Assembly (NCBI GenBank): GCA_008632985.1
Contig: QPGO01000010.1
Location: 62,001-126,000, forward strand
Source: Psammoneis japonica
Taxonomy: Eukaryota
Direction: 5' to 3'
DNA length: 64,000 nt
Shown: piece after piece, positions 10,316-39,600 of the stretch
How the letters are laid out: each line of letters starts with the position of its first letter
Numbering within the stretch: the first letter of the stretch is position 1
Made by a program: the position numbers and the translations under genes
Notes under the pieces: model-generated
Told to the model about the DNA's origin: nothing
Seen by the model: the letters and a program-made list of their open reading frames with translations, nothing else
The model's database searches: none

Positions 10316-10774
10316 TGGGAGATATTTTGATAAGTTCCTTCCTTCCTTCTGCACTCAGACTACTCTACTTAGATATTTTATTTTAGCTGATTTTATTCAA
10401 GAAATCGCATTCTTCAAAGCTTATCGTACCGTTCACCGCCACTTCTTAGACCTTCAAACTCGGTTCGGGTCTCAAAGGGCTTGTTGCTGCCAGTCTGTCT
10501 TCCATGGGCTTTACCGGTATTATATCCGCAAGACAGCTGAAGGATTTCCAATGTATGCCCGCTGTCCATGGGCAGTTGTGCTTGAATATCTCAGACTTGA
10601 TTTCAATACATTGATTATCTCTTTGAGGATGCGATATGCGACCCGACGTACGGGTAAACGTCCGAGAAGCAGCGCACCTACCAGAAGAACCCATTTCCGA
10701 ACGAGCACAAGAAATGTACTACTACCAATTCTTTCCCTATAGAGCTTGAAGATAATTCATATTGCACACTTATA

Positions 10775-11341
10775 TTACAGCCCGGTGGAGAAACCAAGAA
10801 TGCTAATCCCCAGAAGAAGACAGTAACCGATTCCTGTACTCATAGCAAAAATGGATAACAATTGACCAGCCATTCGACTCGTAATGTTGGACTTGTAGCC
10901 AATTGCATAGCTAATGCGACAAGCAGCAATCACCAACATCAAGAGCCCAGCCACATTTGGACGATCAGCTAGAAGTGCCGTACTGAGGATGCTCAGGACA
11001 AGTTGCGGATAGCTTTCGAGAAAGTTCTGGTGGCCGCGTTGGATACAATTGAATAGGACGGCGTTCTTATTGTCGGGGTTTGCATAGAGGTTTGGAAGCT
11101 TCACATCGTATTTAATCCTCGCCAGAACCACGCTTCCACCGAGATATGAGTTGGCATTGGCTATGGCAAAAACTCCTAGTCCCAAAAGACTGTAGCGGTG
11201 GGCATCTTCGTGAAGCAAGCCAGAGAGAAAGGTCTCTACACCTAGCCGTTCAAAGGCCAAGGCAAACGCGATTCCAAGAAAGTTCGGCAGAAAAAAGATT
11301 GGAAAAGGTGCCGGATCGGGAAGACGTTCTGAAGGAGCCAT
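10775..11341 (-). CDS. MAPEG family protein (microsomal glutathione S-transferase 3-like)
   Basis: Motif ARIKYDVKLPNLYA...FNCIQRGHQNFLESYP and a TM pattern typical of MAPEG/MGST3. ATG at 11341. Confidence 0.9.
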   Translation of the reverse strand: MAPSERLPDPAPFPIFFLPNFLGIAFALAFERLGVETFLSGLLHEDAHRYSLLGLGVFAIANANSYLGGSVVLARIKYDVKLPNLYANPDNKNAVLFNCIQRGHQNFLESYPQLVLSILSTALLADRPNVAGLLMLVIAACRISYAIGYKSNITSRMAGQLLSIFAMSTGIGYCLLLGISILGFSTGL

Positions 11342-11720
11342 GAATATGATGTCTTGGGAAAGAAGGCTAAACTCCAAACAGCGTTTTACTACAGTGTCAA
11401 GAATCAAATGCTTTCCTGTTTTATGTCGGAAACAATTTCGAAAATTTACCCGAATCTATTAAACCTCAAGTCATTAAAATATATAAATTTATATTATTTA
11501 TTTTAAAATACGTAGAAGTTATATCAATATTTATTCCTCAATATTGATTATTATTAAAAAACCAATTTTCATGTGCATCGCCAATGAGCTGATTTGTCGC
11601 CACTTTTTTGCGAGCGGACGAAGCGACTTTTCTTTTTATCTCGCTCTTCTTCACTTTTTCGTTTGTTGAGGAGTCCACCAAGCAACATACCGTACACTCT
11701 ATCTCACAGAGAGACTGACT

Positions 11721-12362
11721 ATGAAATCTTCCGTGTTCAAACAGGCGCCCTGCAACAATAAGGAGCCTTTCTCTATATCTATGCCACTCCTGGAGGCAGA
11801 CACTGGTGTCGTTGTAGAGCTTCCAGAGCCGGTAGACGTCGCAACTGGGAACTTGAACATCCCTATCGAATCGCTGAGATCCATGATGCGCTTTATCTCC
11901 ATTGTTGGGTTCTCCATCGGTATTCTCGTTCCTTTTGCCATAATGGAAACCACACTACTCGTTGCCAATTGGTGCAGACGTCTTGACATCGGAATTCCAG
12001 CTCAGCGCGAACTCTTCTTGATTATGGTAATCTTGTGGGGTGTCACCATTATTTTTCTCGCTGCATCAGTCCCATGCATCCCTAGACGGGTCATGTTTCA
12101 GTATTTTGGCATCGAGAAAGTTACGGAAAGACTTGAAGAACATGTGGAGACAAGACTGGCATTGGGTACTCTCGTGGGGGTTCTTATTGCCGAAGTCGGT
12201 CACATCATCGTTTTGAAAAACGGGTTTCTTTCATATGCTGGTTCGGCTCTAGGATGCGCCTTGGTCCTTTCATATTTCTGCTTCCCTTGCCATTCTTCTC
12301 ATCTAGAAGATTTTGAGGATGCGATGTCCGATGAAGAAAAAGACGGCATTCTGGTTGTTTGA
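11721..12362 (+). CDS. Small 4-TM membrane protein, family copy 3
   Basis: 213-aa ORF containing MPLL and RLALGTLVGVL, with an acidic tail ending ILVV. Confidence 0.75.
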   Translation: MKSSVFKQAPCNNKEPFSISMPLLEADTGVVVELPEPVDVATGNLNIPIESLRSMMRFISIVGFSIGILVPFAIMETTLLVANWCRRLDIGIPAQRELFLIMVILWGVTIIFLAASVPCIPRRVMFQYFGIEKVTERLEEHVETRLALGTLVGVLIAEVGHIIVLKNGFLSYAGSALGCALVLSYFCFPCHSSHLEDFEDAMSDEEKDGILVV

Positions 12363-13373
12363 AAGCGACAACGCAGGTTGCCGATTCAAGCAACATTACT
12401 AGAAAAATCAGAGCCCACTGAGACCAAGATAGTGCTCTGCAGATAGGAGTGCCAGAATCGTTGCGATTACCTTAGTAAATTGCAATTGAATGGTCCGTGC
12501 AGACATCTAAGGCTTTCGTTTTTGATTGTGGCGATGTTTTTCTGGTTTGGAATAGCAGGCGAGCCTTTTCCTAATTTCACGTGAAATAGGTTCCATTAGA
12601 CACAACTGTGAACTCCTTGTACCGAACTATTACGGACGCTTCTCACATATGCTGGTTTCTATTGTTGGGATGTTCACTCGTTTGCGCATACACTTCATCA
12701 CCCTGCGAATGTCTCTAAAATAGAGTCTAGGAGAATCGAGAATACTGACAAATCTGTTCATCATTTGCGAGACGTTTCTTGCGCTTGCGTCGATTTCTTT
12801 GATGACGCTGACAGATGCGCAACGTTGCTGGTACTAGGGTAGCCTGTTGCACGTTCTTGGGAGAATCGGAGTGGTGGGAAAATAAAGCCTCTGTAGCTAC
12901 CAGTAGAGAGAGGAACGTTTATCGTAGAATCTAGACTCACCAACTCTCCCTCTCTCTCTTTCCCAAACAACCAAACTCTCCAGCTCTTTATACTCTAGAA
13001 TCTCTCCGGTAAAGAGTGAACTAGAGATTACAATAGCATACGCAAACGAAAAGAGGCGCAAGCTAGAGTCTCTTTAGCTAGAGAGAGAGTAGAGAGTACT
13101 GGGTACGGAGAAGTTCGCGGTTCGCGGAGTCGGACAGTCGAATGGGTCATGGGTCCGCCCGCCGTGCGTCGTCAGCCAGTCTCACAGTCAGTCCATCTGC
13201 CCGTTGATCACATCTTCTCCGGGTTATTTTGAAGCACGACACTCATTCAACGCTCGCGTTCCAAAATTTCTTTTCTTGCATCCAACATCCACAACGCAAC
13301 ATCCGCGTCTTGCACGAACCAAACAAGGTGAAGGGCGGTTCTCGTTGCTGTTCCATGTCATCACAACAAAATC

Positions 13374-16300
13374 ATGGTGTATCAACAGGGCGAGGAATTT
13401 GAAAACGAATCGGAGAATAGTGAAGAGAGCGAGACGGTCGATGGTTCTCCGGATTCAACGTTTGACTCGAGTCAATCAACGTCGGAGGCAATTCTCGATC
13501 CTGCTCCAGAGTCTCCAGACGACGAAGAAGAGTGCAAAGAAGTAGATTTCGGTGATGACATACCTGATGACTGGTACATGCCAGAAACTTTGGTCGCACC
13601 AAACATTCCCGTCCATCAGGATTATCAGCACAAATTGACCCCTATTCCGCTTTCTCAAGCTGAGCTAGATATTCACACCATACCCGGGCCACATGCTGCA
13701 GAGAATGTTACGCATGACGCCTTGGCTATTCCGGAAGCAGTCCCAACGCAACCGACTCAACAAAGTTCAAAGTCACCTGAAGGAGAGCAAGACATCTTGG
13801 ATTCGACTGAGGGGAAGACTTTCTCTTACCGGGCTGAGTCAATTGATAGGAACCCCCCTCCGTCGAAGCAGATATCGCTCTCTTCACTGTTTCTAGAGTC
13901 AAAAGGCTCTAGCGAACAGCATCGATACACAGTGCCAAATGTAGATTCATATGACTCAAACGCTTCAACGGGCGACTCCCTTTATGGCGGTGTCGCATCT
14001 ACGCATGTGTCTGACAGAGAGAGTTCCGGTTCGACGCGGGGGTCGTCAAACAAAGTTTCCGAGGGCTCAATGTCGAATGTGGCAGTATACAATAGTCCCG
14101 TAGAACCTCGTTTGTCTTCTATGAGAGAAGAGATGATGACACACACAGCCAATACCAGAGCAGATCACGACGACTCAAAATCTGATCCTTCTGAGGAAAT
14201 CTTCGCACTCCACGCATACGATGAAATGATGGACGACGATACACCAATTATGCGACAAATTAGTACGTGGTCGTCGTCATCGTCGGGGTCGGATTATGAT
14301 GTTCCTGGGGAGTCTGCCATGTCTGCAGTAGCGATATCCAACGAGCTCACGCAAATCACGTTAGAGCCGAACTTTCTGAATGAAGTCCAGCATGAATTGA
14401 GCACTCACAACCGATTCGACCACATCACTTTTCCACAACCGGGAACAAATCAAACCTTCTGGCAAAGGAACCGGGATACAGAACATGAATCGTTACTCGG
14501 AGAAACTCGCCGTAGTGACGAGGGTACGCGAGGTTCCGCTTTAGACGCTGGGTACCACCACCGGCGAAAGAGGCTGACGAAGTTGTTGATGGAAGCAAAC
14601 TTACTACAGGGATCAGACGGAACGGAGGGACGCAGTGACGAGAATCAGACTCAAGAAACGCGAATGGCAAAGAGCGAAGACGTTCAATATTCTACCATCA
14701 ATTTGATGCGAACTGAAAAACGTATGGGTATCAAAGCACTCGTCGCAGGAGCATCTTTTCAACCAAAGCCTGGAGAAGGTCCCTTGCGGAAAAAGAAGTC
14801 TTCTGCAAAGAGTTACAGCGAACTGCTGCGGTCATTTGAGACGTTGCTGGGCGCGCTTCTTCAACTTTCCGATGAGCTGGAGCTGTGGAGTTCCTTTGAC
14901 AAAACTTCAAACACGACCAACGCAATTGTTTCCGTCGATGCGATGAAAGCTGTTCTTGGCTACGCACCTGCATTGAATCAGGTATTTTCTCGGATAAATC
15001 CAATCCTAGAGAATCTTCTGGAAGAAGGCGTTGAGGTGGAAAGTGGGTTAGATGCTCTAATGACCCGAGCTTACAGAATAGTGCAACTTTTGTGCGATGT
15101 GACATATCGGGTGTGCCAACGCCAACAATGGAATCCGAGGGCAGAAACCGCGTTTGTTACTCTTCTTGAGTTGCTAGATCGAACCGTCGTCGAAGTCACG
15201 TCAATTTATAACGAAGACGACATCCCAGAGTTTCGAATGTCTACACGACACCGCCGTGCCTGGGTAGCGACTGGGCATGTGCAAGAGCTGAAAGCACTTT
15301 TTGTTCAGACAGAGCAAGACTCAGAGCTTTTCCGGCAAATATGCTATGATGTTTTGATTAGCACTGATTACTGGTGCCCTGAACCTATACTTCTGGGTAA
15401 AGTCTGCGGTGTCATCACCGAACAAGCAGAAGAATTGCATGCATCACTAGATGCTCGCATGGCCCCAATTCCCCCGCCCGCCATGCATGTTTTGGACAGT
15501 ATTGATGGCATGCCTCTACCTCGTGCAGCCATCATGAATCGTGTCCTCCGCCATGTCCTCCCACCCTCGGCAGTACGTGATCCTAGTATTGCGAGAACAG
15601 CTTTCAGTCTTCCAAAGCCTGGATACGCCGGGAATGTTTTAGCCATATCTGCGGCCGCAGAGGTCTTGAACGATTCTGAATCTCTTGGTTTAGAGGGTGT
15701 GGGTAAGACAACCGTTGCTGCCATGGTGGCCAGCCACGACGACGTTCGACGTTTTTTCAGAGACGGTGTTCTGTGGGTGCATGTAGGCTCTCAGCCATTG
15801 ACTTATCGCAGATACACCCAGTGTTTACGTGAGCTTTGTTCCCAGTTGGTATTCTATGACGGAATCCCACTTTTTGCAGAACTCTTGCATACACCAGGCG
15901 AATCAACAGCATTACGTCGGAGGCGGGAAGAAGGTTTCATGATGTATGCTCGGGACGCGGTGGCAGAGCTTTTGCGGATGCGCAATGTGCTACTAGTTCT
16001 GGACGATGTCATGTACGCGTCCGATGTCGAATGGTTTCGATTCTCATCAGCTGCAAAACTAAGCACTGCCTCCTCTTCAATCTCATCAAGCGATGGCTCG
16101 TTTTACATTATCGCAACGACTCGATGTCGGGATCTACTACCAAAACCCGATACAATTGAAGTGGATTTGCTGGATGATGTGGAGGCCATGAAACTCTTTC
16201 TCATGGAATCAGGGTATCCGCCAGATCACGAAATAAGTAGCTCTCAAGAAGCTAGATCCATTGTATTGGAATGTGCAAATCATCCTATGGCTATAAAAAG

Positions 16301-19300
16301 TGTTGCGAGATGGATGAGACTAAAAAGGGCGACATCGGGGGTGATAAACAGCACAGAAGAGATCTACAACGATCTTGATTTTGTTTCAACACGTAACATT
16401 GGCGAATTAATCCGAAACGGGAAAGCCGAAGAAGCGAACATGACTTACGAGATCATGAACATCAGCTTTTCTCCGTTCGTGAATGGACAGCCCACCCCTG
16501 TCATCAAATTCTGCTATGCGGCGTTTGTTGACATTTTTTATCCGCAAGACCGACACTCAAAATTCTTTGCTACAAGCGATGTTGCGCATCCGTTGGTTCC
16601 GATGGAAATAGCCGATCTCCTTTTTCAAGCTGTGTTGAATGTCGAGAAAGACAAGTTATTTTACGAAGGGAGTCCCTTCTACGAATCTCCGGATCAAGCC
16701 ACGCACTTGATCCTCGAAGCTTTATCCGCTTTGGGCGTTCTGAAAATTGTTTCGTCTACAGGGGATGGCGTCCAACAAGAGGAAGATAACCCGTCGACCT
16801 CAAAGACCCAGATGTTCTTGCTACTCACTCATACGATCCAACGTGAGTACGGGGAATACTTGTCTAAGGCGTTGCAGGGTGTAACATCTGATACAGAACG
16901 AAGGTGGAATCGTGCCTTCGCGGAGGCTTGTCTTTCACCAAAGAATGACTGGGCTCAACGTGCTGCCACTGCCTCAAAGGAATACACTTCCGAAATGATC
17001 ATTTCCCACATGATACGTGGTGAACTTTTTGAAGAATCTGCGGCACTATTGTCGGACAAAAATTTCGTTCGAAGCCGACTCTACAGTCTTGGACCCGAAA
17101 ATGCTACATATAGGCAGATCGAGGATTGCGAAATACTGTGCGACAGACTTAGAGAAAAGCAAGACGATAAAGCGAAGGAATCACTTGTATACATGGAATG
17201 GGCTTACCGGCAGTTGTCAGAGACGATCAGCAGAGAGTTAAGTGAAAAGGAAAAGGATGAAGCTCAAGAGCTTACAGTTGAGTCAGGGAGGGCAAACTTT
17301 GAAATGGGGCTGTCACTAGCAGAAAAGGGATGTTGGAAGCCAGCCATATTACACTGGGAGCAGAGTCGAAAGATGTTGGCGTCTTCTCTGGGGGTTGTTG
17401 AATTTGTGGCCGCAATTCTTTTCAACATGGGAGTGGCACTCTCGCAGCTGAACCAATATGATCGCGCAATGGAAATGCTTAAGCAGAGCCTTCAAGTCCG
17501 AAGGTTTCTTCACGGCGAAGAGCACGTGCTCTATGCTCAAACAATTCGGAAAATCGGAGATGTATTCCTACAAATGAATGACTACGATGAAGCCCTTGAG
17601 AGCTACAGTTGGGCATTGGAAATATTTCATTTAGATTTGCGTCACAACAGGCTAGACGTCGGAGATATTTTGGAGAGGAAGGGGGACCTTCACTATCTGA
17701 AGGGTGACGTTGCTGCGGCGCTTTCCTTTTTCGAATCTGCGCTAGAGTCCAAAAGGGCAGAATTAGGCAAGGACGATCCCGAACTTGCTTCAACATATCA
17801 ACGGATAGGCAATTGCTTGTCTGATCGAAACAAGACCGAGGACGCTCTTCGCAATTTTGACGATGCCATTAGAGTCTTAGAATTAGATCCTTCCCAGGAC
17901 GATGATCGAGACGCGATGGTCTTTTCATTACAAGGAGTAACGTACAACCTTAAAGGATTGCAAGACGAAGGTCTAGAGTGCTATGAAAAAGCCCTCGACT
18001 TGCTAAAAAGAGCTACGTCGAATAAGGATGCGAAAATTGCTGAGCTTCTGAATCTGATTGGATGTGTATATCTTGTGAAAGGAGAGCACCTTGCAGCTAT
18101 GAAGCTTTTTGAAGAAAGCTTGCAGACTCGTCGAAAAAATGGAGGGTTTGTACATGTCGACACGTCAAGCGTCCTCTTGAACATGGCATTTTTGCACCAA
18201 GCACGGGACCACCCTAAGAAAGCGCTTCGATGTTTGGAAGAAGCTCTCAAAATTCGTCAGCTGCGACTCCCAGAGAGCGAAAAAGTAGCTGTTACTCAAG
18301 AGCAGATAGGTGCTCTGGCGAAGGCACTAAGAAAGCGGCACAAAGCCGAAATTGCTTTTGAGGAAGCACTTCGCCTTAGAATTGTGATAAACGGACGAGA
18401 GCACAAGTCCGTTTCTGCAATCTTGTGTGAACTTGGAGCGCTCATGAATGACTTCAACGAATTTGAAGAAGCGATGACATATTTTGTAGAAGCGCTAGAA
18501 ATTCGAAGGAAGACCTTTGGCGACGACCACGAATCTGTGGCGTCCGTTTTGTACAGCATGGGCTTCACTTTGTATAACGCTGGGAGATATGAAGGTGCAA
18601 TGCACTGTATCGACGAGGCTTTGATCATTAGGAAAAGTCAACAAGGTGATGATGCAACAAAGGAAGTTGGTGACACTCTCAATATGTTGGGATATTTGAA
18701 GGCAAAGCTTGGTCATTTTAATGACGCTTTGTCGCTTCTTCTTGAGGCTCTAGCTGTACGAAAGTATCACAATGACAAGATCAAAATGGCAGAGACGCTA
18801 ATGAATCTTGGCAACGTTTGCCGCGAGAAAGGAGAGAATGATTTGGCGCTAGGACATTACAAGGAATGCTTGAGTCTGCGTAGAAGCGAACTTGGAGATG
18901 ATCATGGTAAAGTGGCGGACGCTTTGATTGCCATCGGAAACATCCGTAGCGACATGGAGCTTATGAACGAAGCGATGAAAGCTTACGAAGGAGGTAAGTT
19001 CCTTTGGAATAGGTTCGTTGTTGACTAGGATGATGCTCAATGTTGTCTTTCTTATCATGCCTTGACGTTAGCTCTTGCAATAAGAAGTGCCTCGCATGGA
19101 GACAACGATGAAATGGTAGCAAAGCTCTACCAGTATATGGGGATGATGGAATTCCGTTTTGGGGACTCTCACAGGGCAAAGCAACTGCTAGAAGAATTTG
19201 TTAGAATAAGAAGAAAGAACGAAACCGATAATGACGGGGAATTCGTAAATGTATTATTCATCATTGGAAACATCCATAAGATGAACAACGAGAGGCACTA

Positions 19301-21622: not shown

Positions 21623-22754
21623 ATGGCAGCGATAAACATGGAAGTAGACGCACCTACTGGAAATGGCGACGGTGTTAAGAAAAGGGCTTTGGATATTCAT
21701 CCGGTAGGTTTGCTTTTGCCTGTTCGAGATGCAATGAATTTTCCTGCTCGCATCTTGTATCTTGTATGATTCAGTGACTTTTCCAAGCCATAGGATTGAC
21801 TGTCGTATCTGACTCTTGATATGAGGTACACTGAACAATGTTTGCTCCGTTCTTTCTCTTAAACAGCTTGCGTTGGTTCACATGGCTGATCAGCATACGC
21901 GTATCAAGTGTGGCGGATCCGTCCTCAGCATCGATTCTCCCGTCGTGGGTCTGTTGTTTGGGCAGAGTGGAACGATTCAAGATGCAGAAGATATTTCAAT
22001 CTCGGCGTCCGATCCGACGGCAAAGCAACAGGTATCGCTTCATCAAGCGGTCTTTCCTCGGAACGCTGTTGTAGGTTGGTACCGTGTGGCGGACAACGAT
22101 GCTGCCCCTACGGCAGATGATGTGAGAACTACTCAGTCACTACAGCAGCTGTATACAGCGGACGATTTCTGCTTTCTCCTCTTGCAAGTCGCCAACGGCA
22201 GTGGTGAGCAGGAACAACCTAAAGGACCGCAGCAACAGCCACTCCCACTCTCCATCTATAGGATGCACCCTGATGGATCTGTATTGCTGGAAGTTCCGGA
22301 CTGGCAGTTGGCAACGACGGAACCGGAGCGCATTGCCATTGAACGCGTCGTTAGGGAAGAGCCCACATCATCAAAAGAGAACCAAGATGCCGGGATATCA
22401 TCTGCCTTTGCGACGCAGCTAAGCACCGTGGAGGATTCCCTCCTGTCCATGAAGGAACGCGTAGACGTCATTTTGTCCTATCTACAGTTTATGCAAAATG
22501 TCGAGAATCCCAGTCACGCTCAGCTGGAACTCTTGCGAGAGATCCAAGGACTCGTATGCCAATTGGGTGCCTTGTCTAGTTTTGATGCGCCCGACAAGAC
22601 CAGTGCGCGGCTTGTTTCACATTTGGGGGCCGTGGCAAAGACCGTGGTTGCCATTCAGGGATACACGGATAAGGTGCGGGTTCTCGCAGAAAGCCGCAAC
22701 GCTCGGGCCACGCGAGATGCGAAGGCATCCACTGTAGCCAGAATGGCTTTCTAG
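21623..22754 (+). CDS. CSN6: COP9 signalosome subunit 6 (MPN domain); 2 exons
   Basis: Exon 1 21623-21703 and intron 21704-21866 (gtaggt...aaacag). Spliced sequence LDIHPLALVHMADQHTR...VVGLLFGQ...VVGWY...EPERIAIE...LLREI matches the CSN6 pattern. Confidence 0.8.
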
Positions 22755-25149
22755 AAACGAGAGTGTAAACAACAAACTACTAGAGGGGTTCATTTGTTTA
22801 CATCTCTTATCTAGCTCTACCGTCTTTAGTCGATTGGTGAATCCGAAGTGTTTTGGGGGTAGGTATTGAGTTCCCACGTATATCCGTGCTCTTTCAAGAG
22901 TTGATTGAACGCGACTGCATGGGGGCAGTAGCCCTACATTGCTTCAAGCTTTGCTCGAAGGGATGGCTGCGAAGCCATACACTGTAGCCAGAATGGCTTT
23001 CTAGAAACGAGAGTGTAAACAACAAACTACTAGAGGGGTTCATTTGTTTACATCTCTTATCTAGCTCTACCGTCTTTAGTCGATTGGTGAATCCGAAGTG
23101 TTTTGGGGGCAGGCATTGAGTTCCCACGTATGTCCGTGCTCTTTCAAGAGTTGATTGAACGCGACTGCATGGGGGCAGTAGCCCTACATTGCTTCAAGCT
23201 TTAGTTGGATAAATGCTGTGTGATGATGCTGTGCACAACACATGCCCAAATGTGTGTGCGGAGAAGGGACTCAACAATTAGCCGAGTGGTGGTTTCTTTG
23301 CCTCTTGGGTTGTTGAGAACCTCCCGCACTCGTTAGGCAGTGTACAGCATTCTGAGTGGTTGTGAGTCTTTACGCTTCCTGAGGTCGCTGGTTCGAGTCG
23401 GCCTCAAATCCAAGCCTCCTTTTCTTTCTCGGCCTGCCCCTTTCCAACCCCATCCGGGGTGGGTGTGCTCAGAACACTGTGCACCACCTGACGAGCACGG
23501 GAGGTTCTCAACAACCCAAGAGGCAAAGAAATTGCCACTCGGCCAACTGTTGAGTCCCTTCTCCGCACACACATTTGGGCATGTGTTGTGCACAGCATCA
23601 TCACACAGCATTTGTCCAACTCTCCCTCTCGCCGCAGGATGGGTCATCGCCATGTGGCGCATCCGCACAGCGGACTCACGAAATTTTGACCATGCACTCC
23701 CTCTGTCAGGCAGGCGGATGGGTCAGCGCCATGTGGCGCATCCGGCCAATGCCAAGGGAGGAGTGGGTTCGAATCCCAACCGCCCACCCCGGATGGGGTT
23801 GGAAAGGGGCAGGCCGAGAAAGAAAAGGAGGCTTGGATTTGAGGCCGACTCGAACCAGCGACCTCAGGAAGCGCAAAGACTCACAACCACTCAGAATGCT
23901 GCATACTGCCCAACGAGTGCGGGAGGTTCTCAACAACCCAAGAGGCAAAGAAGTTGCCACTCGGCCAATTGTTGAGCCCCTTCTCCGCACACACATTTGG
24001 GCGTGTGTTGTGCACAGCATCATCACACAGCGTTTGTCCAACTCTCCCTCTCGTCGCAGGATGGGGTGTCGCCTTGGGGCGCATCCGCACGGCGGACTTG
24101 CGAATTTGTCCATGCACTCCCTCTGTTGGGCAGGCGGATGGGTCAGCGCCATGTGGCGCATCCTGCCAATGCCAAGGGAGGAGTGGGTTCAAAGCCCAAC
24201 CGCCCACCCCGGATGGGGTTGGAAAGGGGCAGGCCGAGAAAGAAAAGGAGGCTTGGATTTGAGGCCGACTCGAACCAGCGACCCCAGGAAGCGCAAAGAC
24301 TCACAACCAGTCAGAGTGCTGCACACTGCCTGACGAGTGCGGGAGGTTCTCAACAACCCAAGAGGCAAAGATGTCACCACTCGGCCAATTGTTGAGTCCC
24401 TTCTCCGCACACACATTTGGGCATGTGTTGTGCACAGCATCATCACACAGCATTCATCCAACTCTCCCTCTCGTCGCAGGATGGGGCATCGCCTTGGGGC
24501 GCATCCGCACGGCGGACTTACGAAATTTTGACCATGCACTCCCTCTGTTAGGCAGGCGGATGGGTTAGCGCCATGTGGCGCATCCGGCCAATGCCAAGGG
24601 AGGAGTGGGTTCGAAGCCCAACCGCCCACCCCGGATGGGGTTGGAAAGGGGCAGGCCGAGAAAGAAAAGGAGACTTGGATTTGAGGCCGACTCGAACCAG
24701 CGACCTCAGGAAGCGTAAAGACTCATAACCACTCAGAATACTGTACACTACCTAACGAGTACGGGAGGTTCTCAACAACCCAAGAGGCAAAGAAATTACC
24801 ACTCGGCTAATTGTTGAGTCCCTTCTCCGCACACACATTTAGGCATGTGTTGTGCACAGCATCATCACACAGCATTTATCCAACTGCTTTGCTCGAAGGG
24901 ATGGCTGCGAAGCCATACACTGTAGCCAGAATGGCTTTCTAGAAACGAGAGTGTAAACAACAAACTACTAGAGGGGTTCATTTGTTTACATCTCTTATCT
25001 AGCGCTACAGTCTTTAGTCGATTGGTGAATCCGAAGTGTTTTGGGGGTATGTATTGAGTTCCCACGTGTATCCGTGCTCTTTCAAGAGTTGATTGAACGC
25101 GACTGCATGGGGGCGGTACATTGCTTCAAGTTTTGCTCGAAGGGATGGC
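22717..25149. repeat. Tandem triplication of a ~250-bp segment spanning the convergent 3' ends of CSN6 and the sulfotransferase gene; copy 2 is interrupted by an insertion
   Basis: actgtagccagaatggctttctag... recurs at 22731, 22981 and 24919. Confidence 0.9.
23203..24885. mobile_element. Non-autonomous foldback-like element with 261-bp terminal inverted repeats, AG...CT ends, a 5-bp TSD (gcttt) and an internal ~421-bp tandem array
   Basis: Ends are agttggataaatgctgtg... and ...cacagcatttatccaact. gcttt lies at 23198-23202 and 24886-24890, while the empty site caagctttgctcg is seen once in copy 1 at about 22945. TIRs are 23203-23463 and 24625-24885; units start at about 23468, 23890, 24310 and 24732. 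Confidence 0.9.
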
Positions 25150-27168
25150 CTCAACTCGCTACCATAGGCACCCGTGTTGACGGGCTCGTCTGACGCTTCT
25201 TTTACAGCAGCCATGTTTGCTTGTTCGACGTCAACACCAATAAACTCCAGAACTTGCCTCGTCAAGTTGACCGGTTTCGTCTTAATGTCGTCAAAGTTCA
25301 AAATCAAAATTTGATCCTCCGGAAAATGCTTGTACCACCGTCGCAACGCGAGATCGTAGTTGCTGCGTTCCTGATGAGAAGCGTCGCCTGCCTTTCCGAG
25401 AAAGTACTCGTCGGGATAGTCGGCTGGATCAAAGGTGTCTGTGTTGCCTTTTCGTGTTTGATGACGAAGATTCTTTCTGACATGACTCCAAGCACGAAGC
25501 ACAATGTCTCGAGCTTGAAATATTATCTTTACGTCGGGAAACAAGAGCCGTATTTCAGCGATATCCTCTTCGGTCAAGCTCATGTAATGTGGCGTGATCT
25601 CTCCGTGAAACAATCCTGGTTTATGGCGGTCTGGAAACTGCTTGCTATACCATGCCAAACCTTTGTGACGATTCCAGTCCCAAAAATGAAGCTCCTTCTT
25701 GACGCCAAAGTTGATTTGCGTGGGACACGAGATGAGTAGCATTGAATGCAACCAGCTTGTACCAGCACCTTGTGCACCAATCCCAAGGAACGAAATGTTT
25801 ACGTCTTTTTCATGATAATCAATAGGCAATATTTCGCCACTTGGCGACTTGCTTACGGGATCAGGCTCTTTCACTGTCTCTGCTGTCAAGCTTTTGAAAA
25901 AGGTCTCCCATCGTGGGTCCTCCAGCATTTTGTCGACGTTTACGGAGCAAAATAGTTTTGATTGCCTAGCTTTTCGAAACGTAAATCGAAGGTTCTGCTC
26001 ACCAGAGTTTGAGATGTAAAAGTCAGGCAGCATGTCCCTCTCCATAGCAAGCGACGCGTTTAGTAATTGATCGGCTTGCTCATCTGATAGGCACTCAAGC
26101 GGATAGTCTTTCCGTATTCTGTATTGAAGCGCCTTGATATGCTGTCCCGTTGCATTTACCACGTCGATGCGATGCAAACCTTTCTTAATCCACCCTTTTT
26201 TGTAGGCTGCAATAGAAAGCATGTCGTGGTGAAGATCATTGTCATAGTCAGGAAGACATTTCGTTTCTTCACTGGGCATGCTTGATAGCATTTCGCATGC
26301 TTGGGATGCTTCTGGAATCATGCGACAATAAAAGTTGACTAAGAAGTGCCCAGGCCGATGCCTGTTGAACACTACAAGTTCGGTATTGTTCAAATCTGAG
26401 AGTCGGTGATCCCACTGCTTCAGGAGTGCACGAGGATGAATGGATTTCTTCGACGTGACGCGATCAAATACATGAGGAAAGGATGGGATGTTCTTCCCTC
26501 CTAGACCAGGCCACTCTTCAAGGGTCTTTGATAGTCCATTCATTTGATAATAATTATGCGGTAACCACTCGTGAAGACGACGGTAGGTAAAGACGACCCG
26601 AACCCGCCATTGATGAAACAGTGGTATCAGCGGTTTCCACAGAAAGTCCTCCGCGTCGTCATCCTTTCGGACAGCACCGAACCAATCGTAAGAAATAAAG
26701 ACATTATGATTCAATGCCCGGTGGAGATTCAGAGCTGCCTCCAACTTTTCCCAAGCAAACGTACAGTTGCGTTCAACTTGTCGTCTACACAAACGACTCA
26801 AGTCGCTTAAGTCGGAAGCTGAGTGGAGGGGTGAGTGGCCGAGAAAAAAGATATTGTCATTCTCCAGCATGTCTTCGTGCTCTACAGCAAACTGCTGTAT
26901 TCCGCTGCTATTTGTCTTTTGAGGACCAACATGAATAATCAATAGTGGCAGGCCTGCATCGGTTTTTCGTCTCAACATGATGCTTGCTGGCCGATGCATC
27001 GTTACTCGAACCTTCAGGAATCCGAGAAATGCGGATGGCCCCTTCCGTTTTCCCTCGGGCCCCACCAATGATTTCAAAGTCTATGATGTCCAGGTACCAG
27101 ACAAACCATGTCACCAACGCCACCAGCCAGACAGTCACAATAAAACCGAGAGTAAGCGGTCTTGCCAT
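25014..27168 (-). CDS. Two-domain sulfotransferase-like protein (N-terminal P-loop family domain plus C-terminal heparan-sulfate-sulfotransferase-like domain); one apparent frameshift
   Basis: TM leader MARPLTLGFIV at 27168 joins the 687-aa ORF through a 1-bp indel at the T5 run 26963-26967. Motifs HVGPQKT, FLGIGAQGAGTSWL, KKELHFWD, GEITPHY and RAWSH. Confidence 0.75.
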
Positions 27169-29419: not shown

Positions 29420-30329
29420 TTTTCGTCAACGCCATGGTTCAGCATGATGCATGGTGCAAGATGCGTGAAAAAACATATGCTAAGTTTCGCACCCAAACAA
29501 ACCGCCAAGCGAACTCACAAGGATATTTTAACACTGTAATGCGGCAACGAGCATGCCGGCAGCAACGAAAGAAGATCGCGGTCGCTCACAATGACAACCC
29601 GTAACATAACAGACGGTGCGCTACGTCCGCTCTATCTCATGCCAAGCACCACACCATGTTCAACTCTCCGCAGCCGTCTCATTTACCCTGTGGACACAGC
29701 TTTGAGTTGCCGCCTCCTCCTGCTGACGTTCGACCACCTCGTTCTGCAGTTCTGCCAAGCAGCACGATGCTGCTGCTGGGTGATTCAAGATGCGGCTTTG
29801 TTCTTTTCTCCTCCTGCCAGTGCAGGTTGTTGTTTACAATTAATTGCCAGATTTGCAACAGTGCTGATGTTGTGGATTCGACCATCTGACCAAGACGACT
29901 GTGTGTTGGAGTGGTGCTTCGATTTGAGTTGAAAGCCCTCTTGTCTGAGGTTGCGTTGGATGGTGCAGAGCCGAGTTTGATGATCTGTGTTTTGGCCAAG
30001 AGCCCAGAGGTTCTTGGAGCTTGTTGTGAATGGAAAACGGTGTGGACAGCATGCAAAGGCAGTGAAATTTGGGAACAGGATGATCAAGCGGGTCATGCCG
30101 GTCAGGTTCACTGCACGGATGCTGCCATCTGTCATGTTCTCATGCATCAGGGTGTTGTTGGAACCAAGGGTGGCTCATGTGTGTTGGAATTTGTTTGTTG
30201 TTTGGCATCGTGCAGGCGCTCAGTCACACTGGAGACAGTGATGGGATCATCTTGAATCACTCCAACATCAGAGTGCCTGTGTGGCAGCGCCCGTTGCTTG
30301 AGTTCCTGTCAAAACAACTCCCATTGACA

Positions 30330-31960
30330 ATGCATCTGATGCTTCAACTTCTTCTCACTTGACTTTTTCTGCTGCTGTCATCAAGAATGCTGAAGCTGCT
30401 GCTTCTGCTGTGACAAGGTCCAACTGTCTCAAAACAACGATGACTGCTTCTGACTTGAGCGAAACAGAGCTCATGGGCAAACTGCATGGAAAGGCTTTAG
30501 CTTTCATTCCTCCTCACATTGTCAAGAGTGCAGCTGCCAAGGCTGACAAGTCTCAAGCGGCCTGTCACTTGCCTGCTGAGGCACGCTTTGCGGCTCTCAA
30601 GCAGAGTGTGCTGCGCTCTGGATGACGAGATGCAGCAGCACCGGCAAGACCACCATCACCACTGCTTTGAAAGCATGTGTGCAGATTGGATGGTTACAAT
30701 CTTCAAGATGGCCAACCATCACTTGGGTTTTTGGAAGCGGATCGTGCCGAGTCTTTCCAAAGGATGGGAGAAATGGTGACACTCTTTGCCTGTGCCGGCG
30801 TCATTGCTCTGGTTGGCCTCATTTCTCCTTGTTGCTGTGATTGTGATGCTGTCCACAAGCTTCATGAAGATCAGGGCATTCCCTTTACGAAGTGTTCTTG
30901 GACGTGCCCATCAATGAGTTGAAGAAGCGCAACCCAAAGGGTCAGTCTGCCAAGGCAGATTTGGGTGAACTCAAGCACTTCACTTGCATTGATGATCCTT
31001 GTGAAGAATCACTCAACCGGAGATTACCTTGAAGACTCATGAATTGCAGATTGAAGAATCTGCAAACATCTTGTTCCCACAGTTGGAACGTCACGGTGTT
31101 CTTGTTGGACCTCCCAAGACTCCTCCAGGACTTCCCAATCCTGACAGCGACAAGTTGATTGATTTGCACGTGCGCGAGCACTTTCAACTTGCATGCCGAC
31201 TGCATTGGCGAAGCAGAGACTCTTCCCAAACTTTTGATTGCCGATGTTGATTTGAATTGGCTTAAAGTCATTGGAGAAGGTTGGGCCAGTCCACTCAAGG
31301 GTTTCATGTGCGAGGAAATGCTTTTGGAGATGCTTCGCTTTAATTCGATTCTTGTTGATCCGTTCAATCTCGCCAACGATTCCATGAGATTGGAACGCCA
31401 GACTAATTTCTCCAACTTTCAAGAACGCCCTCCTCCGACGAGGGTCAGCGCATCCATTCCCATTGCACTCTCGTGCACTTCCTTCACCAATGATGCCATT
31501 GAAGCATCCGACAAGCGTGCCGTGGCACTCGTGACTCAAATGGGCGAGACAGTGGCCATCTTGAGAGATCCTGAAGTCTGTGTCAAGTCTCAATTAAGAA
31601 ATTGTGTCTCGCATGCACGGTGTTGTTGATCCGGGACATCCTTGCATTCATCACATGTGCGAGGGAGGCAACTGCTTCTTTGGAGGTGAAGTTGAACTGT
31701 TGGACCGCATCCGACATACAACGACGGCCTTTTGACAGGTGGCGCACGACTGCTGCCGAATTGGTTGAGGAATTCTAGAGCAAGGGAGCTGATACGATTT
31801 ACGCTTTGCAAACCCGCAGCCCGACTCACCCGTCGTCCACACAAGCTAACACTTCTTTCTTCGTTTCTTTCTCCGGATCGGGCTGATGTCGAGGAATTAC
31901 ACTGGATGCTTTGGAAAAGGATGGTGTCATTGTCATACCCATCTCATGCTGGTGACACCG
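30330..31960 (+). pseudogene. Decayed APS kinase / ATP sulfurylase fusion (PAPS synthase-like) pseudogene, TpA- and CpG-eroded
   Basis: Fragments in shifting frames: LWMTRCSSTGKTTI, LDGYNL, LFACAGVIALVGLISPC, KHFTCIDDPCEE, PPGLPNPD, DVDLNWLKVIGEGWASPLKGFM, VAILRDPE, GGEVELLDRI and ALQTRSPTH. Confidence 0.85.
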
Positions 31961-34372: not shown

Positions 34373-35093
34373 AGTGAGCGTTTGATAAAAGAAAAGTTGA
34401 CGATTGATGACTTGACGACTTCAAACCATCGTCTTGATCATGGACGCTGGATACCGTTGCGGCGCTTCCAGCTTATGGTACAGCTTGATCGATCGCGATC
34501 GATCTGTCGCGCGCGCTGTCGCGCGCGATCATGTGAGTGCTTGTCTGTCCATCGTGCGTCTCCTGTGCTTAGACGCGGTGCAGAGCGAGATCAGAGATCT
34601 GACATGGTGCCTGGTATTTTAGCAGCAAGATTGGAGATTGGAGAAGCCATTGTGTCTCTCTGTCTTCATCTTGAGCATCTCCAGGGTTGTTCCTTGCTGT
34701 GACAAACACAAAGAACAACCAGTGAGATGAAAGTTGTGATGGTGGGGTCGTCTTCTTCGGCGCCGCTCATGATTTTTTGCCTGCTCCCCAGAGCAGCAAA
34801 AAAACTCGACAGAAACAGAGACAGCCAGCAAGAAGTGTTGAGCCAACCACCAGCCCATGCACCAACTGGCTCCTCTTGTTGCCAATTGCAGCATGACGCT
34901 GCCACCCTTTTCACCACACCCTGCGCGGCCGAACAGCAGCTGTGTGCCAATGTTTCATTTGACAACCCTGGGGGCAACAAACAACGACAATCATGCAGCC
35001 ATGCAATTGGCCATCAAATGTTCCAGACAACACTTGCAAGTGCATTGTGATGTCCCAACACACATTGTTGACTTGCAGCCATGCTTGAGTCCT

Positions 35094-35488
35094 GACGCGT
35101 TCCAGACGCAGGTGGGAATCCGTGTGACATTGGGCCCGTAGACTTCTACGTGCGAGCTCCGTAGTAAAATTATACGGTAATTAAATTGTCAATGATCGCC
35201 AACAGAAAATGAGGCAATTTTGCGAACGCACAAACTCGCCCATGATTGAAGTACATCATTTTTTACTTAGCCAGTTACATTCTTCAGACATTGAAGAATG
35301 TAACTGGCGCATTGTTGTTTCTATAAATTCGTTATATAAAACGTCTGGGGCTTCGCAAAACAGCGAGTCTGGACAATTTTTTTAAATGTCACACGTAGAA
35401 AGCTACGTGCGAAACATACGATGGATGATAAAAATTATTTGTGTCACACGTCAGTACTACGAGCTCCCACCTAGGGCTGGAACGCGTC
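35094..35488. mobile_element. MITE-like element (395 bp) with TIR gacgcgttccag..aggtggga and a 4-bp TSD (tcct)
   Basis: tcct|gacgcgttccag ... ctggaacgcgtc|tcct, with a central 17-bp perfect inverted repeat at 35270-35308. Confidence 0.85.
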
Positions 35489-36208
35489 TCCTTTGGCAAT
35501 GACGGCGATTCATCTGGACAAGAACACACGCGTGTGCAGAGTTGTGTCAAGACGTGGCTAAAAACACCATGGCAGTGTCACCCATCACTCACACTCTGGC
35601 CTTGCACCATGCTGCCAATTTGTTGCTGTTGCAGAAAAATGACAGGCAACAAGCGCAAGAACTCTTGGTCGAGTGCTGTGCACTCAACGAGAGGACAATG
35701 ACAATGTCGACATGTCATCTCAGAATGAGGCTGTTTTTAAAACTCTGGTCAAATTGCTCTTGTCTTGTGCTGATGTGGATCATCCATCACAACAGTCTTG
35801 TTGAATCCAGCCTTAGAATTGTGTTGGAAATGCCTGGTGTTGTGTCCCAAGGAACCCATTGTCAACAAATGCATGGGCGTTGTCCTGGGGAGAAGAAACC
35901 AGCAAGTGTCTCTGCTCAGTGCCAACGATGAAATGACAATGAGCGCCACTGTGAGTGTGTTCAACTCACATCAACAAGCCACTTTCAAATCACACAATGG
36001 AGCACATCAGCGCCACTGGCCATCTTTTTCCCACTTGAACAATGCCAGAGACCAAAAGCTCTTCTCTGGAGCTGGCGCACCTCCTGCGACCCAAATGCTT
36101 CCTCCCCCCACACCAACTCAACACATCTCCTGAAGTCCTGAAGTGGCCAATTTGTGTGCAGCACTGGGATCATCAGGAGCAAGTGGAGGATCAGTGTCAT
36201 CAACAAAG

Positions 36209-36602
36209 GACGGGTTCCAGTCCCAGGTGGGACTTTTTGTGACATTTGCCCCGTAGAATTCTACGTGCGAGCTCTGTAGTTCGTACTCTGGTTAATGGAT
36301 ATATTTATCTTCGACATAAAAAAAACGGCCAAGTTTGTAGTACATCTGTCCCTGTCCGTACTCGAAGTTTTGGATAACACGCCTGCCCTACGCCATTCTT
36401 AAGACACTCGAGAATGGCGTAGAAGAAAAAAATATTAAAAATTGTTCAATGCATCGCCTGATAATTGTACTATAAAATCATACAAAATTTCGCCGAAATC
36501 AAGTAGAAATGTACGTGCGCGACATACGACGCGATTCAAAAAACTATCGATGTCACAGTTCAGCACGGTAGTACGAGGTCCCACCTAGACCTGGAACGCG
36601 TC
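36209..36602. mobile_element. MITE-like element (394 bp), same family, with a 4-bp TSD (aaag)
   Basis: aaag|gacgggttccag ... ctggaacgcgtc|aaag, with a central 12-bp inverted repeat at 36388-36422. Confidence 0.85.
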
Positions 36603-39600
36603 AAAGGTGCAGCAGATGCAGTGGGGGGCTTGTTTTGAAGTTGAAGTGACAGCCTCACTCTGGAAACCTTCCTCCTTCAGCATGTCTCTCCAGAGGGTTT
36701 GAAGCACACATGATCACCCTGTGTCATTTCTTGTTTCTGCAGGCTTCCCACAGAGTTGCTTTGTGGGTCTCCATGTGATCAGTCAACAAGTGTGCTCACG
36801 CACAACATGCTCATTTGTCTCATCACATGCTGTGTCAAAGAGCACAGTGGCTCATGATGGCTTTTTGAAATGGGAGGGCTGAGTCTTTTGGGGAAGAGTC
36901 ATCATGATGCCGTTGGCCTTTGTCCAGCATTTTGGCACATGCCCATGGTGCTTTGCTGGAATTGCTGGCATGCAGGGATCAAATTTGGATGCTGTTGCAT
37001 TGCATGCCTCTGCCTTGCAGCTGGAGAATGCTTGACCAAGAAAGGGGCCACTTGCTGCAAGCATGGTCTTTTCTTCCATCCTTTGATGTGCTCTCCAAAG
37101 TGGTGCACCCAAGTTTCAAATCTGGCAGTGTGGTGGGTTGGGTTGCTTGAACTGATTGACAAACTTTGCAGCACATTTGTCAACTTCTGGGGGAACATCA
37201 GGACTTTGCTTGGCAGCTGGGGTGTCAGCATTGCAGCCAATGTTGTTTCAAGGAGAGGGGCCATCTTCCATGTGAGAGTTTGAGTGCATCTTTGCATGCA
37301 TCTTGAACATCCTTCCTGCCTTTGCATGCTCCCTCCATTCCTGCTTTGGTTGCAAGTGCTGCTTTGTCTCTTGTTTTGTTTCTCCATGGAGGCATCACTT
37401 TTTGGAGCATGATGGCTTCAAAATTCTGCCTTCTTAACTTGTGTGGCACCTTTTCATGGCAGGTGCCAGCACTGTTGGATCATGTTTTTGCTGGAAGGTG
37501 ACCTGTTTCCATCATTCCTGGGCATTTCATTCTCCATCTGATGGCTTTGAGGCATGATCAATGACTGTGCTGTGGCTTGAATGCCAGTCTCTGCCAATGG
37601 ATTTCTTCTCCTTGCTTTGTTGATGATTTTGGAAGATTTTGCTTCATTCATGTGTGGAGTTTCTGACTTTTTTTTGACAGCTTGACTTGCCTTGCAACTC
37701 AAAACAAAAATTTCCTGTTGCTCTTGTTGCTGCTCTTGGCAATGAACTGACTCCACATTCTCCAGATGGATGGCTCTGCACAAAAAATGATCAAGTCAAG
37801 CAACTTCATTCTTTGCAACTGGCTTGTCACACTTTCAACAACTTCAGGGCTGCTGAGCTTCCTGCCAGTTTGTTGTCTTTGGCCTCTGTGACTTTGGGTG
37901 GTGCGCATTCAAGGGAGAGGTGTTGCTGCATCAATCCAAAGAAACTTGCATTGGGGGTGTGGCCAAAATTGCCAAAACCAATCACACTTGCCTTGGTGAT
38001 CTCCAGCGATGGTGACATGAGAGCAACATCAGCGGCAATCTTGGATCACATGTTGTTGCATGTGGTGACTGTGTCAATGTGTCAACAAGCTTGTGCAAGT
38101 CTGCAGGCAGCAATGACTCTCACACAAATTTTGGGTTTCCCTCTTGTTTGAGCCCATGTTCAACCACCCAGACCAGCTGGGTCAGCTCACTTTTCAATCA
38201 TGTGGTGGCTTGTTGATTGTGTCAATGTCTTGGCCAACACCTCCACACTGACATTTGGTTTTGGCAGAACAGCAAGAATTTGTTGCTGCCAGGGAGAACT
38301 TCCTCCTTTCAGCTTCTGCTGTCTGTCCCTCAATTGTTCACACTTTTTGAGATGCACCAGAAGTTTTGGCTCACCTGCACAATGCCCAGTGTTCCCATGT
38401 GTTTTTTGGCAATCCAGGTTGACACTCTTTTGTGCTTCCCCTCTGTTGCAGATGATGACAGAAAGCCAAACCTGATGACATTGTGGGTGGAAACCAATCA
38501 CAAGCAGTGCTGTGGCTTTTGATGGTGTGGCAGAGTTGCCCTGCTGCCCATCACTCTGTCAATGCAGATTTTCCTCATTGATGTTCTCATCCAGTGGTGG
38601 TTGTCAACTGTTCCACTGAGTGTGTGGCAGCGGGGCTGGGTGTGAGATCCAGCTCTGTCAGCCAGGGAGCTTGAAAAGTTCTTTTTGTCTTGTTGCTTGG
38701 GCTGGACCTTTTTTGTTCCCAGCTTTTCTTGCAGATCTTTTGACCGTTGCACCCATGTTCCCATTTGTTTTTTTTGGGGGGGGGGGGGGGGGGGGGGGGG
38801 GGGCTTGTTGGCTCTTGTTGACGGAGAGTGGCTTGAAAGGATTCCCCCTCATGTTTGCAGCACTGCTCAACATTTTCTGTGGCACAGTTGGTCAATGGTT
38901 TGCTTGCAGCCTTGATGTGTTGTGTGCTGTTGTCCTTCCTTGTTCCAGAGATGTCTGATCTGATGTCTTCTGATTGAGACAGCTTCTTTGCTGCCAGATG
39001 GGCTGCTGTGAGAGACAATTTCCTTGTTGTCTCTCCTTCTGGGGTGAGACAATTGTTGCTTGCATCCTCAGCCTTTTTTCCTTTGGACAACTCATGTTTG
39101 TCAGAGAGTTGTGTTTGTGCTTGTTCTTTCAGCCACACTTTTTTGGCACCCCACACAGATTCTCTTCCATGATTTCCTTGAGCTTTTTGCTTGCTCTCAA
39201 AGAGACCAACCCTGCTTCTGCATTGGAAACCATGTTTTTGCAAACTCTGATTTCCACTGCTCAGCATCAGGTCTGAAGACATGGAGGCATTCAGGGACAA
39301 TGTGACACTCATCACTTGAGAGAGATGAGTTGAGGCCTTTTTGAGAAATGTGACTTCATGGTTTGCTTTCCTGCTCCACATCGGATCAGATGGATGGCAT
39401 CACCTCTTTCTCTGATGTGGGGTCTGATGGAATTGTTTTCTCTGCAAGACAGTGTCACAGGGCTGCTGGGTGGCCATCCTTGTCCTTTGTCAGGTGATCC
39501 AAACAGCAGTGTTGGAAAAAAGCAAAATGACCTGGGACCTTCTTCCTGTCTCCCACCATCCACAACTGCTTTGTTGTCATTGATTGACAGTGTGGGCTTT

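Follow-up and report, generated by a model that had tools for sequence, protein, structure and literature searches.

Why do neighboring copies of one tandem repeat read TG in one copy and CA in another at the same site? This question is raised by a 1,683-nucleotide (nt) element at positions 23203-24885 of a 64,000-nt stretch of the genome of the diatom Psammoneis japonica (contig QPGO01000010.1, positions 62,001 to 126,000 of the forward strand), which we refer to as the window. The element is composed of 422-nt tandem units (23468-24885) and an inverted arm (23203-23463). Judged from its sequence, the array probably lies in a genome with ongoing or recent hypermutation that is regional, runs one way, erases TpA by turning TA into TG or CA, hits repeated, degraded or silent tracts, and spares genes. 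We observed a strict TpA context, a T>C/A>G polarity, equal use of the two strands, tracts with sharp borders, and an accompanying loss of CpG. Progress over time was also observed: partly as well as fully erased tracts are present, and changes occurred both before and after the units were duplicated.

Copies of the array differ at TpA sites

The first-pass annotation of this locus had counted four units. The array was called with Tandem Repeats Finder, which returned a period of 422, 3.3 copies, and 93% matches at 23487-24885, corresponding to three and a third units. Unit 1 (23468-23782, plus strand) is partial, starts at unit column 112, and contains no TA, compared with 14.1 expected by base composition. 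Unit 2 (23783-24202, plus strand) contains a single TA (23904-05), compared with 17.6 expected on the same basis. The first 261 nt of unit 3 (24203-24624, plus strand) are free of TA, and its last 161 nt hold TA at 24519, 24549, and 24566. Unit 4 (24625-24885, plus strand), which is also the right terminal inverted repeat, contains 11 TA, with TA odds of 0.71. Per-unit expectations from base composition are 12-18 TA in the erased units.

It had been claimed that all eight differences between 24711-24765 in the last unit and 23869-23923 in the second unit fall at TpA. This was confirmed: 8 of 55 positions differ; at seven of these the affected letter belongs to a TA in the last unit, and at the eighth to the TA of the second unit at 23904-05 (CATAC versus CACAC). 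The strings quoted as reciprocal outcomes were found in place, with CCTGACGAGCACGGG at 23487-23501 and CCCAACGAGTGCGGG at 23909-23923. When all 261 positions were considered, 11 of the 17 differences between the last and the second unit lay on the 22 TA positions (binomial P = 1.2e-8).

An alignment of all copies with tabulation by dinucleotide context had been proposed as a check and was performed, and the TpA excess was upheld. In the five-copy alignment, which comprises the four units (some partial) and the inverted arm, 46 of 426 columns vary, and 30 of those belong to 20 pyrimidine-purine dinucleotide sites. Every site with TA in any copy is variable (15/15), compared with 5 of the 82 other pyrimidine-purine sites (Fisher P = 1e-13). 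The invariant pyrimidine-purine sites comprise 35 CA, 21 TG, 21 CG, and no TA. Both CA and TG are present at ten sites; nine of these also show TA, and none shows CG. Of the 12 variable sites within the range of unit 4 that carry TA in some copy, unit 4 itself reads TA at 11; at the remaining one, column 126, TA is found in unit 2 only. Pairwise tables gave the same dominant class for every pair of units and for the copies of a second tandem repeat, D3, in which the element is nested: C/T followed by A, together with CA-versus-TG double differences.

TA is the most economical ancestor within the element

CA and TG are two transitions apart, so the hub between them must be one of two self-complementary dinucleotides, TA or CG. 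Because TA is its own reverse complement, independent copies can end with TG or CA at one site. The first-pass annotation had explained TG and CA as independent single transitions from an ancestral TA on opposite strands. The core of this explanation is supported: it is the most economical one for the array, and the polarity is shown independently by a gene pair (see below). The additional argument that TA still present in the last unit excludes a CG ancestor is invalid alone, since TA can be reached from CG via TG by two C>T-type changes; other evidence excludes CG. A CG hub is implausible because it needs full decay at ten sites in all copies beside 21 untouched CpGs and, in addition, double changes at every such site of the last unit. 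On a star tree, the cost was 56 steps with T>C/A>G only, 74 steps with C>T/G>A only, and 40 steps with both allowed. At each of the eight positions where the terminal arms differ, the last unit carries A/T; this fits either polarity equally.

Eight TA-derived sites have the same state in units 2 and 3. Three pairs of positions (23911/24331, 23955/24375, and 24035/24455) read CA in one of the two units and TG in the other. Thus, these three sites were still TA at the duplication and changed independently later. As read from the aligned units, the reciprocal CA/TG outcomes date the process relative to the growth of the array.

The D3 copies were polarized by the majority of the three copies. All four TA/CA or TA/TG singletons among them polarize as TA loss. 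In D3b, the copy adjoining the element, TA>CA changes at 23110-11 and 23114-15 and a TA>TG change at 23131-32 were found, which places three TA losses within 100 nt of the left end of the element. A few singletons, for example the TA at 23904-05 in unit 2, resemble ordinary CA>TA changes.

Retention of TA varies along the element. The left arm kept TA at 5 of the 11 TA sites of the right arm; units 1 and 2 and the first 261 nt of unit 3 kept none except 23904-05; and in the last 367 nt, the TA-retaining tract at 24519-24885, all 14 hub sites read TA. The TA-erased tract (23372-24518) consists of two TA-free runs of 532 and 614 nt, with the TA at 23904-05 as the sole break. It starts within the left arm and ends midway through unit 3, so its borders differ from those of the element. 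The element as a whole has TA odds of 0.25 and CA/TG odds of 1.42. The TA at its right end may reflect a tract border at this place or a recent replacement from an intact copy.

A duplicated gene pair shows the same direction

The window contains two paralogous gene copies that are 81% identical. Copy A (40715-41775, plus strand; open reading frame [ORF] 40824-42158, plus strand) is degraded and contains 9 TA (odds 0.13). Copy B (43061-44121, plus strand; part of ORF 43461-44732) is intact, lies 0.9 kb past the end of the tract of copy A, and contains 41 TA (odds 0.54, near the background of 0.59). The 41 TA of copy B correspond in copy A to 5 TA, 16 CA, 14 TG, and 6 other dinucleotides, so that 30 became CA or TG and the strand outcomes are near even. 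Conversely, the 8 aligned TA of copy A correspond in copy B to 5 TA and 1 CA. Of the 36 changed TA sites of the pair, 30 are T>C or A>G. Outside TA, there was no such excess (23 A>G and T>C versus 32 G>A and C>T). The number of CG is nearly unchanged between the copies (66 versus 57), while TA falls from 41 to 9.

The encoded proteins were used to polarize these changes. At nine positions of the homologous part, a Tyr of copy B faces Cys or His in copy A, as Tyr codons became TGY or CAY. Five proteins that are 29-41% identical to copy B (P0121-P0125) served as outgroups. At 8 of the 9 positions, Tyr is present in at least two of these sequences, and the residue of copy A was never found there. 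Two CTA codons and one GTA codon became CCA, CCA, and GCA in copy A, and the outgroups have Leu, Leu, and Val/Ile at these places. These comparisons indicate that the direction in this genome is TA>TG and TA>CA, on both strands equally, and that one duplicate can be affected and the other spared. If TA is the ancestral state, copy A and the array unit originally had a TA density that matches the background of the window; the opposite polarity needs a 422-nt unit without TA.

Copy B is the only 81%-identical partner of copy A in the window and is unaffected. The family of copies A and B has no Pfam match and contains an invariant GPxKTxT loop, which may resemble the 3'-phosphoadenosine 5'-phosphosulfate-binding loop of sulfotransferases. 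Five relatives were found among 5.8 billion proteins at E <= 1e-5.

TA-erased blocks make up about a quarter of the window

The first-pass annotation had treated the pattern as a property of the array. It is real there, but the array is one instance of a process that has probably left its mark on about a quarter of the window. TA odds are 0.02-0.15 within five tracts, each 1.1 to 8.5 kb long, compared with 0.5-0.7 outside. Besides the tract in the element, these are a block at 29842-31500 (30001-31500: 7 TA, odds 0.07; CG odds 0.51), the largest block at 34501-43000 (TA odds 0.15; CG odds 0.41), which contains copy A, a block at 54001-56000 (10 TA, odds 0.09; CG odds 0.52), and a block at 60491-64000 that reaches the end of the window (60501-64000: 14 TA, odds 0.06; CG odds 0.27). 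Pooled over about 17 kb of blocks, the odds are 0.11 for TA, 0.40 for CG, and 1.67 for CA/TG, compared with 0.59, 1.04, and 1.11 in the rest of the window. All other dinucleotides in the blocks stay within 0.15 of background (AA/TT: 1.17 to 1.23). Erasure is only partial in the left arm of the element and at 35.1-36.6 kb and 40.5-41.8 kb. In 500-nt bins, the TA odds correlate negatively with the CA+TG odds (Spearman -0.67) and positively with the CG odds (+0.50).

A TA-free run in the largest block, 37436-40454, comprises 3,019 nt of complex sequence with 48% G+C and 19 CG. At the TA density of the first 22 kb, such a run has a probability of about 2e-57. CG odds fall to 0.08 within 38-40 kb. 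In TA-free DNA, TGA is the sole possible stop and no tyrosine codon can occur; all 14 listed ORFs of at least 110 amino acids (aa) that lie wholly inside the run are without Tyr. The block also contains a homopolymer of 28 G at 38776-38803. At metagenomic loci of distant relatives of copy B, the longest TA-free run was 372 nt (40-61% G+C, among the 25 of 68 loci with the lowest 1-kb TA odds), a rough baseline that is not informative on other diatoms, as metagenome contigs rarely hold repeats.

The genes with family matches lie outside the tracts, and the ordinary intergenic DNA of the first 22 kb is unaffected. One tract holds the high-copy mobile repeat, and two hold degraded copies of host-type genes. 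Of the 82 ORFs of at least 85 aa in the erased blocks, 81 are without a family match; one exceeds the Pfam cut-off (PUA_2 of ATP sulfurylase), and the other matches listed are at chance level. The match is a degraded PUA-like fragment of ATP sulfurylase at 31159-31626 (plus strand; PF14306 [PUA_2], E = 1.5e-15; PDB 4maf, E = 1e-13). No Pfam match was found among fifteen long ORFs. Further tandem repeats are present at 140-652 (258-nt period, 2 copies, 89%) and 1140-1305 (69-nt period, 2.4 copies). When these were pooled with a repeat pair at 62363-62678, TA sites were conserved at 32%, compared with about 75% for other dinucleotides.

The element belongs to a high-copy family

Three public runs from one sample (recorded kind 'DNA?', library type not recorded) supplied contigs that were aligned to the region. 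Read depth was 22-59 in the flanks and 39-17,161 in the bins of the element, most of which lie in the hundreds or thousands. In several contigs, the match stops at 24885/24886 and unlike sequence follows; these contigs represent other insertions with the same terminus. High depth and a shared terminus with varied flanks show that the array belongs to a mobile, high-copy, noncoding family. The number and order of the units rest on the assembly, as no contig spans the whole array. The erased states are matched by the separate runs at depths of hundreds to thousands. At the CA/TG sites of the second unit, no TA reading reached a share of at least 5% in the short contigs, which makes an assembly or base-calling artifact unlikely.

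A 917-nt contig of run X2 contains 157 nt identical to 24729-24885, with unlike sequence on both sides. Because this identical stretch has different flanks, the TA-bearing form was not made at this locus. The contig points to another genomic copy that is truncated or rearranged. Other CpGs of the family show CG/TG or CG/CA polymorphism, which is one-sided per site. Such one-sided polymorphisms point to amplified subfamilies, so that variant frequency gives no ancestry within the element.

Alternative explanations

The polarity could be the opposite one, with CA/TG (or CG) ancestral and a cytosine deamination like that of fungal repeat-induced point mutation (RIP) having made the TA of the last unit, of part of the left arm, and of copy B. 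The A/T in the last unit at all eight terminal-arm differences would fit this, as would three TA states found only in unit 4 (24716-region sites 106 and 220) or only in unit 2 (23904), for which the local majority implies CA/TG>TA. CA or TG is also read in abundant variants of the family and in a diverged 399-nt contig, and diatoms have DNMT4 enzymes related to fungal RID (PMC9998398). Yet CA and TG are not interconvertible by C>T, and ten sites carry both; starting from CG, complete decay beside 21 untouched CpGs would again be needed. The TA of unit 4 coincide with all seven CA/TG-dimorphic sites in range. For the gene pair, RIP-like polarity is contradicted by the outgroup proteins, which show TA codons to be ancestral at 8 of the 9 Tyr positions. 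It also needs near TA-free ancestors (0 TA in 422 nt; 9 in 1,061 nt) whose "mutated" copies then arrived at the normal TA density of the window, and RIP indices point the other way in the element, given its TA and CA/TG odds. We regard this polarity as highly improbable. Decay of methylated CpG is very unlikely as the cause too. In this case, CA and TG would be the two outcomes of 5-methylcytosine deamination at an ancestral CG, with TA as a rare double change. CpG is indeed depleted in the erased blocks (odds 0.40, and 0.08 in 38-40 kb), and many CpGs are polymorphic in the family reads (CG/TG or CG/CA), which also contain CG at 23897-98. However, none of the ten CA/TG sites has CG in any local copy, nine have TA, and 21 CpGs do not vary. 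Once CG has become TG, the C that is left lies outside a CpG and TA should be rare, yet unit 4 has TA at all such sites. Between copies A and B, CG hardly changed (66 versus 57) while TA was lost. CpG decay is probably real in the blocks, but as a separate process that does not account for the TA pattern.

TpA erasure could leave the same signature through another chemistry, which we consider unlikely. Polymerase eta has a WA motif, and 5-hydroxymethyluracil occurs at TpA in dinoflagellates; error-prone repair synthesis by polymerase eta, a T modification at TpA that pairs wrongly with G, or GC-biased repair of heteroduplexes formed by repeat copies would all yield T>C/A>G. Repeats recombine often, and a tract-like pattern suits repair synthesis. 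Against a WA motif or general GC-biased conversion stand the AA/TT odds, which are not lowered in the blocks, and the non-TA changes of the gene pair (23 A>G/T>C versus 32 G>A/C>T). In addition, the single 81%-identical partner of copy A in the window is unaffected. A thymine modification at TpA may still be involved. It is extremely improbable that selection or an artifact produced the pattern, be it avoidance of TA (because of a nuclease, stop codons, or promoter-like words), compensatory changes in a structured RNA, or errors of base calling where bases are modified. Most genomes are depleted in TA, and a structured RNA could be considered given the tRNA-like pieces of the unit (E = 0.37 for a weak match of tRNA-Sec type) and arms that are able to fold. 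Degradation of the erased DNA, seen in the truncated paralog and in ORFs without family matches (1 of 82 in Pfam), makes selection site by site implausible there. Compensatory change was found in 0 of 69 predicted RNA pairs on one strand and 0 of 85 on the other, and a structured RNA as the cause was rejected. An artifact is contradicted by the contigs of separately filed runs of the same sample, which agree with the erased states at hundreds to thousands depth.

Several observations weigh against the erasure of ancestral TA, or against parts of this interpretation. Within the element, the polarity rests on parsimony and on the hub argument, with no true outgroup. The abundant variants of the family have CA or TG; the TA-bearing form accounts for a minority, with a depth of only a few times that of the flanks (about 400 at 24748), which would also fit a young subfamily that gained TA. 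The diverged 399-nt contig reads CA, CA, TG, TG, and TG at the five sites of the quoted stretch. At 23897-98, C accounts for 4,596 and A for 1,745 of a total depth of 5,794; this corresponds to CG in at least 49% of the depth and is not predicted by TpA erasure alone. Retention switches abruptly inside unit 3, from no TA to 14 of 14. In the gene pair, the ninth Tyr position (column 200, Tyr/His) has His, as in copy A, in four of the five outgroups. Two of the erased blocks hold degraded host-type genes and not recognizable viral or transposon genes. The process is known here from its mutational footprint alone, from which we infer both "targeted defense" and "adenine deamination."

A probable process and its counterparts

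In the proposed process, TpA would become TpG and would read CpA when the other strand is affected. As TA is self-complementary, a change on either strand removes it, and copies end as TG or CA. Tandem units duplicated during the process thus record both outcomes. The carrier is a non-autonomous element of a high-copy family, the last 367 nt of which may have escaped or been replaced recently. The chemistry would be an enzymatic deamination of DNA adenine preceded by T, after which hypoxanthine pairs with C. Targeting would follow a silent chromatin state, and the loss of CpG in the tracts would be the ordinary decay of 5-methylcytosine in silent DNA.

The closest counterpart is found in Bigelowiella natans. 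A 2026 preprint describes a mutation-accumulation experiment in which two integrated viral regions mutate about thousandfold faster than the rest of the genome, with 230 of 231 changes being A>G or T>C, all at TpA (10.64898/2026.01.13.699255). The targets are integrated giant-virus and virophage DNA, and DNA adenine deamination by an ADAT2-like enzyme is proposed by its authors (10.64898/2026.01.13.699255). Neither diatoms nor CpG are mentioned there (10.64898/2026.01.13.699255). The two cases share TpA-only transitions to TpG or CpA depending on the strand, affected regions of kilobases beside normal DNA, long-term TpA depletion with a gain of CpA/TpG, and an enrichment of degraded or unannotated sequence in the affected regions. 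B. natans is a chlorarachniophyte (rhizarian), whereas the host here is a diatom (stramenopile). New mutations were measured there and the viral region has TA odds of 0.45, whereas a footprint is available here and reaches saturation, with 3,019 nt without TA. The targets there are viral; here, the recognizable ones are a repeat family and degraded host-type genes, with no recognized viral genes, and CpG was lost in the erased tracts. Our literature searches yielded no report of such hypermutation in diatoms and no paper combining diatom with TpA, TpG, and CpA; the B. natans preprint was the only relevant one. On present sequence data, the finding would add a diatom lineage to a process so far described only in one unrelated alga, from which it also differs in the saturation, the kinds of recognizable targets, and the parallel CpG loss.

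Fungal RIP is similar in that it damages tracts of repeated or duplicated DNA through context-dependent transitions that are visible in the dinucleotide composition, and a duplicated gene is affected here too. In contrast to the process proposed here, which destroys TpA, RIP makes TpA from CpA/TpG. RIP mutates both copies of a duplicate, whereas here one paralog is affected (odds 0.13 in copy A, 0.54 in copy B), and the element, with its low TA odds, does not show RIP indices. Diatom DNMT4 enzymes, the relatives of RID, are of unknown function (PMC9998398). Decay of methylated CpG likewise gives reciprocal TG or CA on the two strands and is present in the erased blocks, but it acts on the C of CpG, cannot make or remove TA, and lags far behind TA loss in younger tracts.

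Enzymes of the ADAR and ADAT2/TadA type resemble the proposed activity in converting A to G with a preference for 5' U/T, and double-stranded RNA would be expected from inverted repeats like those of this element. ADAR belongs to animals, edits RNA, and has a neighbor preference much looser than the TpA specificity here; a record in DNA would need reverse transcription, and nothing here suggests such a step. Editing of DNA by ADAT2/TadA-type enzymes has been reported, as discussed in the preprint (10.64898/2026.01.13.699255).

A broader interpretation is possible, although we hold it as doubtful. Diatoms might have a programmed genome defense that erases every TpA in silent repeats, mobile elements, and dead genes by deamination of DNA adenine. 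It would be a mirror image of RIP, shared with Bigelowiella and ancient in the SAR group (stramenopiles, alveolates, and rhizarians), and arrays would be its time-ordered record. If true, this would be a second kind of mutational genome defense beside RIP, opposite in chemical direction, that removes one dinucleotide to completion from chosen tracts. The saturated footprint in a diatom suggests that the process may be widespread among major marine algae. It would bear on the decay of algal transposons, viral insertions, and pseudogenes, distort the composition-based annotation of genes and repeats (as TA-free DNA has only TGA stops and no tyrosine codons), and bias estimates of mutation spectra. 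The array would serve as a set of internal clocks, with units duplicated before and after individual changes.

Layout of the element and its target

The inverted arm is the left terminal inverted repeat (23203-23463, minus strand). It is the reversed first 261 nt of the 422-nt unit (columns 1-261) and is 97% complementary to the last partial unit (24625-24885), resulting in terminal inverted repeats of 261 nt. The element has no coding capacity. It is nested in the D3 repeat (250 nt), copies of which lie at 22718-22967 (D3a) and 22968-23202 (D3b), the pair being the target of the insertion (22718-23202, plus strand), and at 24906-25149 beyond the element. The sequence GCTTT (D3 positions 231-235) flanks the element on both sides as a 5-bp target-site duplication, at 23198-23202 on the left and 24886-24890 on the right. 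The right duplication is followed by the third D3 copy (together 24886-25149, plus strand), which has one TA>TG change at 25067-68. An equivalent of the empty site is present, as the junction of neighboring D3 copies shows the uninterrupted target.

Long inverted repeats of subrepeats, a target-site duplication, the lack of coding capacity, and many copies are features shared with Foldback-type and other non-autonomous terminal-inverted-repeat elements. None of the families tested fits the 5-bp duplication and the termini, and the element was not matched to a superfamily. A 22-base conserved word of the unit had no match in the metagenome collection.

Each unit contains tRNA-like segments with T-arm-like GGTTCGA motifs (23714-23787, plus strand; around 23370-23420, minus strand), and the repeat family may descend from a tRNA-derived sequence. 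Scans of the window for tRNAs and RNA families gave nothing at threshold. In a permissive scan of the element, the best tRNA match was to the tRNA-Sec model at 23714-23787 (21 bits, E = 0.37, below threshold), and one other match at chance level was obtained.

Other genes in the window

Long uninterrupted eukaryotic frames in the window encode a DHHC palmitoyltransferase, a JAB/MPN protein, an NB-ARC-TPR protein, an LRR protein, and sulfotransferases. The named relatives of the DHHC protein are from diatoms (Seminavis, Phaeodactylum, Nitzschia, Epithemia, and Thalassiosira), with 41-50% identity. An uninterrupted ORF of 1,884 aa (13374-19028, plus strand) combines NB-ARC with many TPR repeats, an NLR-like architecture in a diatom. 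Sulfotransferase-type genes are located at 25014-27077 and 58030-60150, near the ATP sulfurylase fragment, and the region resembles a sulfation gene cluster that includes dead copies.

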